From a virus (lineage: Duplodnaviria > Caudoviricetes): 64,000 nt of DNA. Below, in pieces: positions 11,341 to 63,494 of the stretch. A program made the position numbers and the translations under genes. The notes below the pieces were generated by a model. The model made no database searches. It was given only the letters and a program-made list of their open reading frames with translations, and was not told the DNA's origin. The stretch lies in the IMG/VR virus record IMGVR_UViG_3300032307_000764, positions 128,001-192,000 of that record. One strand, given 5' to 3'. Each line of letters starts with the position of its first letter. Position 1 is the first letter of the stretch.

Positions 11341-11943
11341 TTAATCGTCGAAGCCTCCGAATCGTTTTAATATATTAGCACCTTTACCTAGGTCTTCACC
11401 TTTTAAACTAGGTGGGATCTCAAATTTCTTAACAATCTCTGGATCCTCTTCCATTTTCCTTCTAAGAACATCTTTATAAGTTTCGTTTCCTAAAAGTTCT
11501 TCTTCTGACATAGGAACTCCTTGCTGTCTTAAGATATACTTAATCAAGAATCCCATTTTAAAAAGATAATCTTCAGTAGTCATACAAGCTCTTCTAAGAT
11601 CAGTATTTAATCTAGGGAATTCCGAAGATTTAGAAGGTCCTACAACCACTCTAATACTTCCGTTGTGCATGATGTTATATTGAGGATATCCAGGTTTAGG
11701 AGATTTCATAGATTCGTGTTTAAATGCTATGTTACCTAAACGATCTTTAAAGTATCTTTGTTCTTCAGTACCTTGTGTTTCGATACCGATTGGGTTTTCT
11801 GCGATCATCTCTGTCCAACCCATTGCAACCATATCTTTATAAGCTTCTGATTCTCTGATTGGCTTAAAGCTAAGAACCGGGCATTTTTTAGCTCTTCTAA
11901 CTTCTTGTATTTTTTTGAACTCTGGATAGTTTTTAATACTCAT
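11341..11943 (-). CDS. Hypothetical protein with leader MSIKNYPEF and C-terminal GANILKRFGGF motif
   Basis: Start corrected to 11943; AATATATA motif at 11961-11971. Confidence 0.75.
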   Translation of the reverse strand: MSIKNYPEFKKIQEVRRAKKCPVLSFKPIRESEAYKDMVAMGWTEMIAENPIGIETQGTEEQRYFKDRLGNIAFKHESMKSPKPGYPQYNIMHNGSIRVVVGPSKSSEFPRLNTDLRRACMTTEDYLFKMGFLIKYILRQQGVPMSEEELLGNETYKDVLRRKMEEDPEIVKKFEIPPSLKGEDLGKGANILKRFGGFDD

Positions 11944-12156
11944 TTTTCCTTTGTTTTTCTTATATATATTCTTTCTACTCGCGGACTCCGAGAATTTTTC
12001 AATAGATCGTGAAATTTTTTGGTATCTTGACAGTATATTTAGAGTCCTCAGCAAAAAAACAGTTTTTATGAATTGTTTTTTTGTTCCCTATATATAGAAA
12101 AAGCCGGTTCCTAGGAATCGGTTTTTTTATTTGAGTTTTTTCTATAATATTGCGAT

Positions 12157-12708
12157 ATGTTAAAAGTACACTTTGAAAATTTTAATCACTTCTTGGAGAT
12201 AACTAATCCTCCTTCTAGTGTAACTGATCGTCTAGAGAAGCTTAAGACTCTCAGAGAAAGACCGGATTATCATCCAGAGCCCAATACTTTTGAGCACATC
12301 CGAATAGTGACTGAGAGATTAATGCTCACTGATGACATCGATCTTATATTCGCAGGATGTATGCACGATCTATTTAAGCTTGATACGCTGAGATTAAATC
12401 CTAAAACCGGATTTCCTACTTGTCCTGGACACGATACGCAAGTAGCGAGCTTTATACGAAGTAATAAAGAGGTTCAGGAATGGATGATTAGATATGGAGC
12501 TGATGTTGAAACAGTTGCAGATCTTTGTAAAGACCATATGAGATTTCATCAGTTCGATAGAATGAAAAAATCTAAGCAAGACGAGTTTCAAACAAGACCT
12601 CACTGGGGTAAATTAATATACTTAGGTGCTGCAGATAATATGATAGTTGAATTCGACATAGACAATTTAGAAAAAAGCTGGAAATGGAAAGAAAGAAGTA
12701 CGCTATAA
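12157..12708 (+). CDS. HD-domain phosphohydrolase
   Basis: YHPE..FEH, MHDLFK, GHD, HMRFH, ADN. Confidence 0.8.
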   Translation: MLKVHFENFNHFLEITNPPSSVTDRLEKLKTLRERPDYHPEPNTFEHIRIVTERLMLTDDIDLIFAGCMHDLFKLDTLRLNPKTGFPTCPGHDTQVASFIRSNKEVQEWMIRYGADVETVADLCKDHMRFHQFDRMKKSKQDEFQTRPHWGKLIYLGAADNMIVEFDIDNLEKSWKWKERSTL

Positions 12709-13802
12709 GAACCCTTAACAAGTATGTTAATGAGGGAAAGATAGAGAGAAATCCACATCCAACACTTCCTATCGCTATTTATAACTATACAAGGGAAACT
12801 CAATTTAATAATGATTGGGATGAAATAACCTTGGATATGAGAGGAACAATAATAGACGATAAAGGATATGTTGTTGCTTCTGCTTTCCGTAAGTTTTTTA
12901 ATTATGAGGAAGTAACTGATCAGGTTCCAACTAAAGGGGATTATGTTTATGTTCAAGAAAAAGTCGACGGATCTTTAGGTATACTTTTTTATTACCAGGA
13001 TGAATGGCATCTTGCAACTAAAGGATCTTTTACTTCAGATCAGGCGAAAAAAGGAATGGAAATACTAAGAAAAAACTATCCAGTTTTTGATCGGGTATTT
13101 CATCGACACGTAACTTACATAGTTGAGATCATTTATCCAGATAACAGAATAGTGGTTGACTATAAAAACGAGGAGAAAATAGTTTTCCTGAGCACTTCTG
13201 TTAATGGAGAAGAACAACACTGGACAACATCTTTATCCATATTTAGTAGTAGTGGTATAAAAGAAGAGGATATAGTTAAATGCGAGCAGCACTTCTCTTT
13301 CGGTGAAGATCTGTATAAATCTTTAAAGGGTAAAAATACAAAAAACGAGGAGGGATTTATTCTTAGATTCCAGCCTGGTAATTTCCGAATGAAAATAAAA
13401 TTCGAAGAATATGTTAGATTACATAGGCTTCTTACTAATTTCTCTAATGTTGATATCTGGGAAGCATTAAAGGATGGAAGGGATATAAATGTTCTTCTTG
13501 AAAGAGTTCCTGATGAATTCGATGCATGGGTTAGAAAAACTATATCTGATCTAGAATATCACAAATATAGAATAGAAGAAAGAGCAGGAAAGATCCACGA
13601 GTATTTTAGGTATGGAAAATATGGAGATCGCGAGATCGAGCCTACTAAGAAAGAATTTGCACAGCACTTAGAATTATGTAAAACCGAACCTTCTATAAAA
13701 GCAATATGCTTTTCTATATGGGATGGAAGAAATTACGATAGGATAGTTTGGAGAATGATAAGACCAAAGTATCAGAAGCCTTTCTGGAACAGGGAGGAGT
13801 AG
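12684..13802 (+). CDS. T4 Rnl1/RnlA-type RNA ligase
   Basis: IYNYT, RGTII, RKFFNY, motif I EKVDGSLG, VEII, EEGFIL, RMKIK. Confidence 0.9.
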   Translation: MERKKYAIRTLNKYVNEGKIERNPHPTLPIAIYNYTRETQFNNDWDEITLDMRGTIIDDKGYVVASAFRKFFNYEEVTDQVPTKGDYVYVQEKVDGSLGILFYYQDEWHLATKGSFTSDQAKKGMEILRKNYPVFDRVFHRHVTYIVEIIYPDNRIVVDYKNEEKIVFLSTSVNGEEQHWTTSLSIFSSSGIKEEDIVKCEQHFSFGEDLYKSLKGKNTKNEEGFILRFQPGNFRMKIKFEEYVRLHRLLTNFSNVDIWEALKDGRDINVLLERVPDEFDAWVRKTISDLEYHKYRIEERAGKIHEYFRYGKYGDREIEPTKKEFAQHLELCKTEPSIKAICFSIWDGRNYDRIVWRMIRPKYQKPFWNREE

Positions 13803-13842
13803 TATTTGTAACTTCTTGGAACCCAATGTCTATAATATATGA

Positions 13843-14868
13843 ATGAGAAGAAAGATTATAGACATCTATTGGGAAGAATTCGAAGCTTATTTCAGAAGTA
13901 AATCTGTTAGCCCTGCTATAACTAAGAAATTTATCTCTTCTTTACAATCTCACTCGAAGGATAATGAGGCATCCTTTAAAAAATTCTGGGAATTTATAAA
14001 GATTAACAGATCACTTCCTATAGAAGATTCACTATTAAATCTAAACAAGGAATTACTTTCAAATAAGAAGTACAACAAGACCATGATTTTTGTTTCTGAA
14101 TGGACTCATTCATATCTGGGAGCTGGAGAAATTATGTGTTTGCTCATATCTGAAGATTCTTTCTCCGGAGGTAAAAGAAAACCTGATATACTCTTTAACG
14201 GATCTGATCGAAAAATAGAGGTTAAATCTTACGCAGATAATTTTAGATTGACTGAAGCGACATCCTTCTTTACTGATCTTGGTACTATCATACAAGCTCT
14301 TGTACAAGGAGGATTTCTAGGTAGCTTAACTGATTCCAATAACAATGATCTAAGAAAAGGATTTAGACATTTTTGTGAGTCTTTTCTTTGTCCCCGTGGT
14401 TTTATAGAATTGAACGGTAAGATATGGAAGCTTGAATCTAAAGATGATGAAACGATAGTATTTAAAGCTAGTCCAGAAACCCCACGAGAGGTTGTCAATT
14501 ATTCAATAGTTAGGAATTCACTCAGGAACTGGTTAGGAAGAGGTATGTTAAGTCTCAAACTTGCTGAGATAATTGATCCTACAAGAACATCAAGAATACA
14601 AAAGAGCGAGGTTTATAATTACGTAAACCATATTATAGGAACTGGGGATATACCTCCGATACCTTTAGAGCAATACTTTATTCTTTGCGGATTGGAATCT
14701 ATGATAATATATGAGAGGAAGAATAAAAACCATCCATTTCAGATAGTTAAGTTCAACGAATTAAATCAATTCACATTGGATAGGATAGGACAGGGTAAAG
14801 TTTCTTATAAGAGGAACTTAGGAATCAAACCTAGAAAGAAGGGAAGACCCTCGATCAGTACCATCTAG
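13843..14868 (+). CDS. Putative PD-(D/E)xK nuclease
   Basis: GAGE...KPDIL...KIEVKS. Confidence 0.55.
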   Translation: MRRKIIDIYWEEFEAYFRSKSVSPAITKKFISSLQSHSKDNEASFKKFWEFIKINRSLPIEDSLLNLNKELLSNKKYNKTMIFVSEWTHSYLGAGEIMCLLISEDSFSGGKRKPDILFNGSDRKIEVKSYADNFRLTEATSFFTDLGTIIQALVQGGFLGSLTDSNNNDLRKGFRHFCESFLCPRGFIELNGKIWKLESKDDETIVFKASPETPREVVNYSIVRNSLRNWLGRGMLSLKLAEIIDPTRTSRIQKSEVYNYVNHIIGTGDIPPIPLEQYFILCGLESMIIYERKNKNHPFQIVKFNELNQFTLDRIGQGKVSYKRNLGIKPRKKGRPSISTI

Positions 14869-62553: not shown

Positions 62554-62709
62554 ATGAAAACACACAAATTAGTTTACCCACTAGCTTACACTTCACTCTT
62601 CACATTAGTAATAGGAGCAATCCTAATGGTAGGAGGAAATCACATAGGAGATTATATGGTTGCAGGAGGTGCAATCGTAGCAACATTACTCATGCACAAA
62701 TTAGATTGA
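62554..62709 (+). CDS. 2-TM micro-protein (start corrected)
   Basis: MKTHKLVYPLAYTSLFTLVIGAIL. Confidence 0.6.
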   Translation: MKTHKLVYPLAYTSLFTLVIGAILMVGGNHIGDYMVAGGAIVATLLMHKLD

Positions 62710-62853
62710 GTTTGATTGGTTAACACATACAACTCAAATCAGAAAGACCAGCTTCCTCCAGCTGGTCTTTTTTTGTGGACCTTTGACAAATCTTTAAGAA
62801 GACAACTGGAACTTAGCAGGAACCCCCGATATATAAGAGATAACAACAACATT

Positions 62854-63069
62854 ATGAAAGAGTATCTTTTATCAATCAAGAATGGTGAAACCATCAACAC
62901 AATCAAAGCACATACACTAGAAGAAGCAATTCTCTACTTTGCAAAGGTTAAAAACCTATCACAAGATTCATTATTAGACATCTATAGTGTTAATCCTAGA
63001 CCATTCACAATAAACCTTGCTGATTATTGTGAAGCTCATAAAATAGATCCTTACATGCAAACTAAGTGA
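62854..63069 (+). CDS. Hypothetical protein (start corrected)
   Basis: GATATATA at 62828; LEEAILYFAKVKNL. Confidence 0.65.
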   Translation: MKEYLLSIKNGETINTIKAHTLEEAILYFAKVKNLSQDSLLDIYSVNPRPFTINLADYCEAHKIDPYMQTK

Positions 63070-63266
63070 TAGTAAGTATTCCTTATTCCTAAGGTTTACA
63101 TCCCTATTTTCCAGATAATAGTATACTAGCATAAGTCTGAGGAGGTACCCCATTCTATTTTACCATAGCTTAACATAAGGTTTACCATAGCCTAGCATAA
63201 GCTCCTGAGGAACCTCCCTAAGGATACTAAAAACAAGTAACAGGATATATACAATAAAACACAACC

Positions 63267-63494
63267 ATGGAATTACTAAGATTTGAAGATTACATCAACG
63301 AAAATAACAACATATCTGAACAAGAAGATATGATGATTAAAAATTTTAAAACTGATGTTCAAAGAGTACTTATGCAAGACACAGTAGCTAGACCTAACTT
63401 TGCGGAAGGAACCTTCGGGAGTAGACCAGCATCTTTACCAGAAATGATCTCTTCTCTAGAATCTATTATTGCTGATTATAAATCTAAGATGTAA
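63267..63494 (+). CDS. Leader-bearing small protein
   Basis: MELLRFEDYINE; GATATATA at 63244. Confidence 0.7.
   Translation: MELLRFEDYINENNNISEQEDMMIKNFKTDVQRVLMQDTVARPNFAEGTFGSRPASLPEMISSLESIIADYKSKM

Follow-up and report, generated by a model that had tools for sequence, protein, structure and literature searches.

Why do some 16 unrelated genes within one stretch of a phage genome begin with the same peptide? The stretch, hereafter the window, is a segment of 64,000 nucleotides covering bases 128,001-192,000 of the 248,191-bp IMG/VR record IMGVR_UViG_3300032307_000764 (33% GC, 85% complete according to CheckV). The peptide is a 13-residue leader at the N-terminus with the consensus M-K-[HRNK]-[IL]-x-x-[FY]-x-x-[FY]-[LIV]-N-E. 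Because of its capsid protein of the T4 gp23 type, its gp21-family protease and the relatives of the capsid protein, the phage is an uncultivated jumbo member of the T4 superfamily. On balance, and with clear reserve, we favour the reading that the leader would act as a capsid-targeting (prohead-core targeting) propeptide, a longer counterpart and greatly enlarged version of the capsid-targeting sequence (CTS) system of T4.

The leader was carried by 41-44 of the approximately 331 proteins of the genome (~13%, about one in eight), where about 5 would be expected by chance. The core [ILVM]xx[FYW]xx[FYW], starting at residue 3-8, was found in 41 genes, where its frequency inside proteins would predict 5.0, and the strict form, in which the core continues into h-[NDSTQ]-E (h, hydrophobic residue), was found in 17 genes against 0.4 expected. 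When the proteome was scored with a position-specific matrix from which the Met columns were excluded, 40 of the 43 top segments lay within 13 residues of an N-terminus. The three best-conserved columns were [IL] at position 4, [FY] at position 7 and an aromatic residue at position 10. An h-x-E tripeptide lay inside residues 6-18 in 42 of the 44 leader proteins, and a clean [LIV]-[NST]-E behind the second aromatic residue was present in about two thirds of the leaders.

An earlier, sequence-only reading of the window had counted about 16 unrelated proteins sharing the leader, in agreement with the 16 members found here by matrix score plus one variant (22168, minus strand). The starts of the first 15 genes listed below had all been translated correctly there; among three weaker starts that it had added, 11943 and 15663 (both minus strand) scored as members and 3154 (plus strand) did not. 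The bodies were indeed unrelated, as only two blastp-matching pairs were obtained among 44 leader-stripped bodies (44 x 44). A genome-wide profile, which that reading had proposed as a check, recovered 37 N-terminal sites when its 17 columns were searched against the genome in six frames. The genes are as follows, with a slash after the candidate cleavage site and lengths in amino acids (aa).

16557..17360, minus strand: 267-aa leader protein, MKTKHIKMFESFSSE; preceded by GGATATATA; matrix score 25.7
18109..19539, minus strand: 476-aa leader protein, MKKQVLSFTEFINE/A; weak OmpA-like domain at residues 315-381, under the Pfam cut-off
19571..21631, minus strand: 686-aa leader protein, MKHLSLFNDFDKVEE; its paralogue is a 543-aa leader protein at genome 217712
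21644..22168, minus strand: 174-aa protein with variant leader, MKNLKSFSEILE/K; second aromatic residue replaced by Ile
22350..22910, minus strand: 186-aa leader protein, MKNLKSFHLFENLD; C-terminal GGSLLNRFG; CGATATATA ending 4 nt ahead of the ATG
22973..23521, plus strand: 182-aa leader protein, MKNLTGYETYLKSGRVNE/Q; preceded by GGATATATA
23584..24354, plus strand: 256-aa putative pro-Tad3, MKRIKDFKGFINE/Q, then a helix, a second site LNE/G at residues 41-43 and a full-length Tad3 homologue
24351..24860, plus strand: 169-aa leader protein, MIHLRSYSNFLNE/S; the orthologue in relative G5 retains a leader, MIRILNFNSFINE/S
24927..25325, minus strand: 132-aa leader protein, MQHIKLFEQFVSS; basic, isoelectric point (pI) 9.9; preceded by GGATATATA
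27183..27716, minus strand: 177-aa leader protein, MLNRIKSFNQFNKLNE/A; C-terminal GYRLLGRLG
27731..28798, minus strand: 355-aa leader protein, MKHLLEYKSYLNE/S; C-terminal KGSSILNRFGI
28810..29718, minus strand: 302-aa leader protein, MKKIVTFDEFSRINE/S; C-terminal GARILGRLG
31824..32090, minus strand: 88-aa leader protein, MSLDHIKLFEQFSHSGE; preceded by TGATATATA; matrix score 26.2
34372..34785, minus strand: 137-aa leader protein, MKLRLFENFQENPNE/F
63267..63494, plus strand: 75-aa leader protein, MELLRFEDYINE/N; preceded by GGATATATA
11341..11943, minus strand: 200-aa protein with weaker leader, MSIKNYPEFKKIQE/V; matrix score 16.0; C-terminal GANILKRFG
14818..15663, minus strand: 281-aa protein with weaker, displaced leader, MKKNKRRIKTFKNWLL; first h-x-E not before residue 36
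3154..3591, plus strand: DUF5856 protein, not a member, MTFDEYKETGG, without the leader pattern; GATATATA upstream

The array of small plus-strand genes between 35 and 63 kb contained no leader gene except 63267..63494 at its far edge. Selection on the leader acts at the level of the peptide and not of the DNA, because identical leader peptides were encoded by differing codons in different genes and the codons chosen at the conserved F, Y, I and L positions followed genome-wide synonymous usage (p 0.28-0.60). The conservation ran along amino-acid classes, F/Y and I/L/V.

Machinery that could act on such a leader is encoded in the same genome. The major capsid protein belongs to the T4 gp23 family (PF07068, 129 bits; genome 20315-22039), and directly upstream of its gene lies that of a 677-aa protein whose N-terminal part is an S77 protease of the gp21 family (PF03420, 37.5 bits, E 2.2e-10, above cut-off); the protease domain runs from genome position 18267 to about 18900. 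The His of its ELDHP motif and the Ser of its SISSRAAG motif are presumably the catalytic residues, as taken from the T4 literature. These motifs aligned with ELNHP and GVSSRG of T4 gp21 (wild type; structure 5JBL), respectively. The C-terminal two thirds of the protein form a scaffold of 14 tandem 14-residue repeats, I-S-Y-S-E-Y-L-A-E/N-L-D-K-N, and also hold eight further [LIV]NE sites; the homologue in Tenacibaculum phage PTm1 is annotated as 'prohead core scaffolding protein and protease'. As judged by motif, the pattern of a single scaffold repeat (aromatic-x-x-aromatic-[LIV]-x-E) recurs in the second half of the leader. The pattern aromatic-x-x-aromatic-[ILVM]-x-E occurred 45 times in the proteome (14 times in scaffold repeats, 13 in leaders and 18 elsewhere), against 15 expected overall from composition.

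The capsid protein itself carried HSLNE/SAGAY at residues 39-48, which was invariant in 23 relatives (66-96% identity) within a flanking segment of variable length. Its LNE was the sole h-x-E between residues 17 and 286, and the capsid protein of PTm1 showed IINE/SYG at the corresponding place. From this uniqueness and invariance, the cleavage site of the capsid protein is predicted at LNE/S.

The leader genes also shared an upstream motif with the head genes, GATATATA, which most of them had been supposed to follow. The count upheld this: 28 of the 41 leader genes had [GA]ATATATA in the 60 nt ahead of them, against 33 of the 290 other genes (odds ratio 16.8, p 2e-14), and the leader genes without a motif of their own were mostly downstream members of the same operons. 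It sits where the T4 late promoter TATAAATA would, and it was present directly upstream of the protease-scaffold gene, of neighbouring head-module genes, some of them without a leader, and of several large genes that are taken from their N-terminal sequences to be putative tail genes. Co-regulation of the leader genes with the protease-scaffold and other head-module genes, as part of one late regulon, is supported by this distribution. The motif ended exactly 4 nt ahead of the ATG in eight leader genes (for example 22910, 27716 and 29718, all minus strand, in the window) and in six others, while the remaining spacings clustered at 13-25 nt; the 4-nt spacing suggests leaderless or near-leaderless late mRNAs.

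The leader behaved as an add-on to otherwise complete proteins. The AlphaFold2 (AF2) model of the 355-aa protein (27731-28798, minus strand) had a mean predicted local distance difference test (pLDDT) score of 81.7, with residues 1-12 and 347-355 below 50; a confident fold is predicted, with disordered extensions at both termini. N12, E13 and S14 were invariant across 15 relatives of this protein. One orthologue bore a different leader variant, MKKIITFGEFSKINES, on a near-identical body, which indicates a leader swap between bodies. A Foldseek search of the model against the PDB and the AFDB clusters gave no match (best E 0.04-0.4, template modelling score <0.2). The adenylate kinase of the genome has a 15-residue leader before the kinase, and the ADK Pfam domain begins at residue 20. 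In a relative whose capsid protein is 68% identical, the orthologous kinase carried the leader MENIVKSFSGFLNE/R, different in sequence and the same in pattern, and the blast alignment began after the leader. In the same relative, homologues were found for 15% of the leader proteins against 29% of the other proteins, a lower conservation that fits an exchangeable accessory set. A second leader-like motif (RVLSFENFYSIN) was found at residue 203 of a 454-aa leader protein (genome 126370-127734), which may be a fusion of two cargo genes.

The protein encoded at 23584-24354 also has this arrangement. It matched Tad3 (Pfam PF25185, E 4.5e-21, 75 bits against a cut-off of 27), and its family has 459 database members. 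The AF2 model was poor (pLDDT 56), so the comparison was made by sequence profile against the PDB: the family profile matched Tad3 in PDB 9B7D with E 1.3e-47, and residues 3-192 of the 194 of Tad3 (chain 9B7D_B) corresponded to profile positions 43-248. From its full-length similarity, the homologue is a putative inhibitor of ThsB of type I Thoeris. By this alignment, native Tad3 starts exactly after the second conserved LNE/G, and the first 43 residues (leader, helix and LNE) are an extension, because the solved Tad3 matches from profile position 43 on. Among 30 orthologues, E13, N42 and E43 were at least 90% conserved and N42 was invariant. Several orthologues (P0055, P0081 and P0085) had a PF19141 domain of ~165 aa inserted directly behind the leader Glu and ahead of LNE/G-Tad3, and these would be polyprotein-like cargo with protease-type junctions. 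With unrelated bodies, a leader swap and a domain inserted behind the leader, the earlier description of a portable tag held.

Most bodies of the leader proteins had no Pfam or PHROG assignment. The assigned ones were Tad3, a CHAP peptidoglycan hydrolase (genome 226615-227388, slightly over cut-off), an adenylate kinase, an AAA_5 ATPase and a DUF2201 metallopeptidase, and one further cargo gave a weak P-loop kinase match. A PHROGs search with 20 head and leader proteins returned unannotated or marginal matches only, and an ESM Atlas feature search with the 686-aa and 355-aa cargo gave no usable match. The cargo had a median length of 199 aa and a maximum of 686 aa. Tad3, the CHAP hydrolase and, more weakly, the OmpA-like domain fit delivery by the virion. 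The cargo had been described as effectors, which suits the Tad3 homologue and the CHAP hydrolase and does not suit the housekeeping-like adenylate kinase and AAA_5 ATPase. The DUF2201_N metallopeptidase and the AAA_5 (MoxR-like) ATPase, both with a leader, were encoded ~1.1 kb apart (genome 105005-108313); they would be a two-part enzyme system tagged together.

A second tag was observed at the other end of some proteins. The motif G-x-x-[IL][IL]-x-[RK]-[FLV]-G occurred within 22 residues of the C-terminus in the eight proteins listed here, against one internal match in 75,579 positions.

11341-11943, minus strand: 200-aa protein with weaker leader
22350-22910, minus strand: 186-aa leader protein
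25877-26608, minus strand: C-terminal tag protein
27183-27716, minus strand: 177-aa leader protein
27731-28798, minus strand: 355-aa leader protein
28810-29718, minus strand: 302-aa leader protein
38234-38668, plus strand: C-terminal tag protein
195206-196267 (genome), plus strand: C-terminal tag protein

Six or seven of these eight proteins also had the N-terminal leader. The C-terminal tag was invariant in the orthologues of the 355-aa protein and disordered in its AF2 model, and it was rare in the relatives, with none in G5 and one in G1. After ejection, it may direct proteins to the host membrane.

How far does the leader extend among phages? The capsid protein was 43% identical to that of LR756500 (a 462-kb uncultured huge phage), 39% to those of the Lak megaphages of Prevotella and 33% to that of PTm1, and at least 215 closer relatives with 66-96% identity were found in IMG/VR. 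The hosts of the related isolates suggest a Bacteroidota host, and an enterobacterial host is probably to be discounted for this phage. Relatives carried 4-20 leader genes each, with ~10 in LR756500; the contigs come from freshwater and sediment samples. Searches for the leader in PTm1, Flavobacterium phage MaF61 and Lak-A2 gave no match or marginal matches only. In PTm1, the nearest cultured relative, there was no match to the leader profile and the motif counts were at chance level; its scaffold repeats are of a different type, and its deposited annotation marks no proteins as virion or leader-type. Exact MKHIKLFExF was found in IMG/VR in at least 108 distinct complete proteins of at least 75 body clusters, the matches listed coming from at least 120 stretches. 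Among the matches listed, the following residues, which were free in the search, read INE, VNE, ISE, LNE or ITE in half of the proteins, and 84 of the 108 had an h-x-E within residues 10-20. An S77 protease fused to a scaffold of YSEYLAEN repeats (8-14 units) was present in all four complete leader-bearing genomes tested (256-482 kb), and the fifth leader-bearing large genome tested, which is 46% complete, gave no protease-scaffold match. The leader co-occurred with one protease-scaffold repeat type.

Within the head module, a search of the whole record for Portal_T4 (PF07230) gave no match. The 863-aa late protein encoded upstream of the protease (genome 15653-18244) was considered as the portal and rejected, having neither a Pfam match nor likeness to the PTm1 portal. 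This protein and a 176-aa head-module protein (24290-24820) have in common the N-terminal G-Y-N-P-[IV]-[YF]-E-[SQ]-L, which is another h-x-E peptide.

The capsid-targeting reading joins these findings as follows. During assembly of the prohead core, the leader would pack among the scaffold repeats as an additional repeat unit, and this docking would draw the attached protein into the core. The S77 protease would then cut after the Glu of [LIV]-x-E; the scaffold would be fragmented and exit, while the untagged cargo would remain in the head and the freed proteins would enter the host together with the DNA. In the case of the Tad3 homologue, a cut at LNE/G would release an N-terminus equal to that of native Tad3, and the virion would bring in a finished Thoeris inhibitor, much as T4 brings in IPI* to counter a restriction enzyme. 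Targeting of this kind agrees with all the measurements and would explain the likeness of the tag to the scaffold repeat as well as its co-occurrence with that scaffold. A wider picture, which we offer tentatively and with more doubt than confidence, is that a widespread 250-480 kb T4-related clade, probably of Bacteroidota, has made a universal label of one scaffold-repeat unit, and that the product of any gene gaining the label would be taken into the prohead core, released by the protease and injected. About 13% of the genes of the present phage would then code for pre-made injected proteins, including a protease-activated pro-Tad3, cell-wall enzymes and enzymes of nucleotide metabolism, some with a C-terminal tail like a membrane helix that would hold them at the host membrane once inside.

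Several observations weigh against capsid targeting. About one third of the leaders had no clean [LIV]NE, for example MKHIKLFESYHNGK, in which the sole candidate site is L-F-E within the core. The cargo was not basic, with a median pI of 5.35 against 5.64 for the proteome and a pI above 8 in 27%. It comprised ~40 species compared with the handful of CTS-bearing internal proteins in T4, and the adenylate kinase, AAA_5 ATPase and DUF2201 peptidase among it have no obvious role in a capsid. A search of the T4 genome (NC_000866) with the leader profile at E <= 10 gave no match. A global alignment of the N-terminus of the capsid protein with T4 gp23 did not place LNE43 opposite LTE65 of T4, so the call of the capsid cleavage site rests on motif and conservation. 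The gene set consisted of 331 crude open reading frame calls covering 91% of the genome. Finally, the clade is uncultivated, and we infer packaging, cleavage and ejection alike; because all steps beyond a protease-type motif on late proteins are reached in this way, we keep our confidence in capsid targeting limited.

Could the leader instead be recognised by different phage machinery, for instance an enzyme that modifies it or a chaperone, or send proteins to a membrane or another site in the cell, its h-x-E ending being a coincidence? The disorder of the leader in the AF2 model is what recognition peptides show, and the presence of the leader on six or seven of the eight proteins with the amphipathic C-terminal G-x-x-LL-x-R-F-G tail hints at targeting to a cell location. 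A radical-SAM partner (PF04055) was searched for in the genome (85% complete) at E <= 0.01 and none was found, while all 14 control genomes gave a match. The enrichment of [ILV][NS]E behind the searched core in at least 108 independent proteins, the co-occurrence with one protease-scaffold repeat type and the same LNE at the conserved capsid-protein site also speak against coincidence, and we regard this explanation as unlikely.

Another possibility is that the leader is a pro-sequence whose removal by the protease times or restrains late proteins, as in a zymogen, without loading into the capsid, the proteins acting in the infected cell. The same h-x-E sites and S77 protease would serve it equally, and adenylate kinase and similar enzymes seem more useful in the producing cell. 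Native Tad3 binds ThsB through its N-terminal helices (PMC13728456), which the 43-residue extension could mask. However, the gp21-family protease of T4 is built into the prohead core and is active there (PMC9026906), and cleavage by such a core-bound enzyme would need the substrate inside the prohead. Moreover, a mere cleavage site needs no likeness to a scaffold repeat, and a conserved segment of 10 residues before the site implies recognition beyond the protease. We consider this explanation quite unlikely.

It is highly improbable that the leader reflects a nucleic-acid signal at the 5' ends of late genes, be it for translation start on near-leaderless mRNAs or as a recombination hotspot for cassettes. 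The first codons may matter for initiation where the late motif lies just 4 nt ahead of the ATG, as it often does, and leaders are swapped between bodies; however, the genome-wide codon usage, the identical peptides with differing codons and the conservation by amino-acid class described above are those of a peptide, and the leader is missing from head-module genes that have the same promoter motif. Chance or composition bias can be dismissed as scarcely conceivable: K, N, I, F and Y are common in an AT-rich genome of 33% GC and so are MK- starts, but 41 cores against 5 expected, 17 against 0.4 in the strict form, and the near-absence of the motif internally and in AT-rich PTm1 oppose it.

If capsid targeting is correct, the injected proteome of a large group of uncultivated jumbo phages would be readable from sequence alone, which would supply a catalogue of anti-defence proteins and of proteins for host takeover in the first minutes, most of them with a fold not yet known. 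Inhibitors of defence signalling such as Tad3 would then be deliverable pre-made rather than made after entry. The likeness between tag and scaffold repeat, seen also between the CTS and gp22 of T4, suggests a simple physical basis for CTS action, of which we found no statement in the literature. Together with the protease-scaffold that matches it, the 13-residue tag could become a second capsid-loading system for proteins, independent of the first.

A literature search with the leader strings returned nothing relevant. Four points were not found in the literature: this leader, the tagging of ~13% of a proteome and of at least 75 body families with it, the resemblance of the tag to the scaffold repeat, and the pro-form of Tad3. 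The principle of capsid targeting is already known from T4, and the processing of many head proteins is known from phiKZ-like phages.

Compared with the solved Tad3 (PDB 9B7D), the leader-bearing homologue has a 43-residue N-terminal extension, while its body matches the whole of Tad3. Encapsulin cargo-loading peptides are C-terminal, bind the shell itself and remain uncleaved, and no DNA is packaged. The leader is like them in being a short portable peptide on unrelated proteins that would be bound for an HK97-fold shell.

In phiKZ, 201phi2-1 and SPN3US, head and inner-body proteins are cut by gp21-like proteases (gp175, gp245), and many are ejected (PMC9026906, PMC7411985, PMC10052503). As in these giants, a distant gp21 homologue would here process dozens of head-internal proteins of a jumbo phage, cutting them behind Glu; unlike in them, all cargo shares a single conserved tag, and the capsid protein clearly belongs to the gp23 type. 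Cutting in the phiKZ-type giants reportedly occurs at S/A/G-x-E, and their propeptides are not known to share a common leader sequence.

The closest comparison is with T4, where the targeting residues are known from IPIII genetics. The gp22 scaffold of T4, which the scaffold part of the fused protein resembles, is cut by gp21 at many L/I-x-E sites. Its segment AKEWLAE/N (T4 NC_000866) is nearly the scaffold repeat SEYLAE/N of this phage, and the T4 CTS QEFIAE resembles gp22 (A)KEWLAE/N, so that the tag resembles a scaffold segment in both phages. As read from the T4 genome, IPII and IPIII both begin with MKTYQEFIAE/A. The cut made by gp21 falls behind the Glu of L/I-x-E, and the first 10 residues of IPIII suffice for targeting, which needs residues 4 and 7, whereas processing needs residues 8 and 10 (PMC9026906). 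The T4 facts invoked in the sequence-only reading, namely this start and the cutting rule of gp21, were correct. The resemblance to the CTS that it proposed stands for pattern and context and does not extend to detectable sequence homology, as the profile search in T4 showed.

Residues 4, 7, 8 and 10 of the CTS correspond to residues 4, 7, 11 and 13 of the leader, respectively, and the layout of the leader is that of the CTS plus one added turn, with an extra aromatic residue at position 10. Like the CTS, the leader would be an M-K propeptide at the extreme N-terminus; in both, positions 4 and 7 are hydrophobic or aromatic, and the residue behind the final [LI]-x-E is small or polar. Both phages encode a gp21-family protease and a gp23-family capsid protein, their tagged bodies are unrelated, and one leader cargo is, like IPI*, an anti-defence protein or its homologue. 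In contrast to T4, the leader has 13 residues rather than 10 and a third aromatic position, the protease is fused to the scaffold, the cargo is not small and basic and reaches 686 aa, and some of it has a second internal site or extra domains in a polyprotein-like manner. A review of T4 has suggested that the loading of varied proteins could evolve by way of the CTS (PMC9026906).

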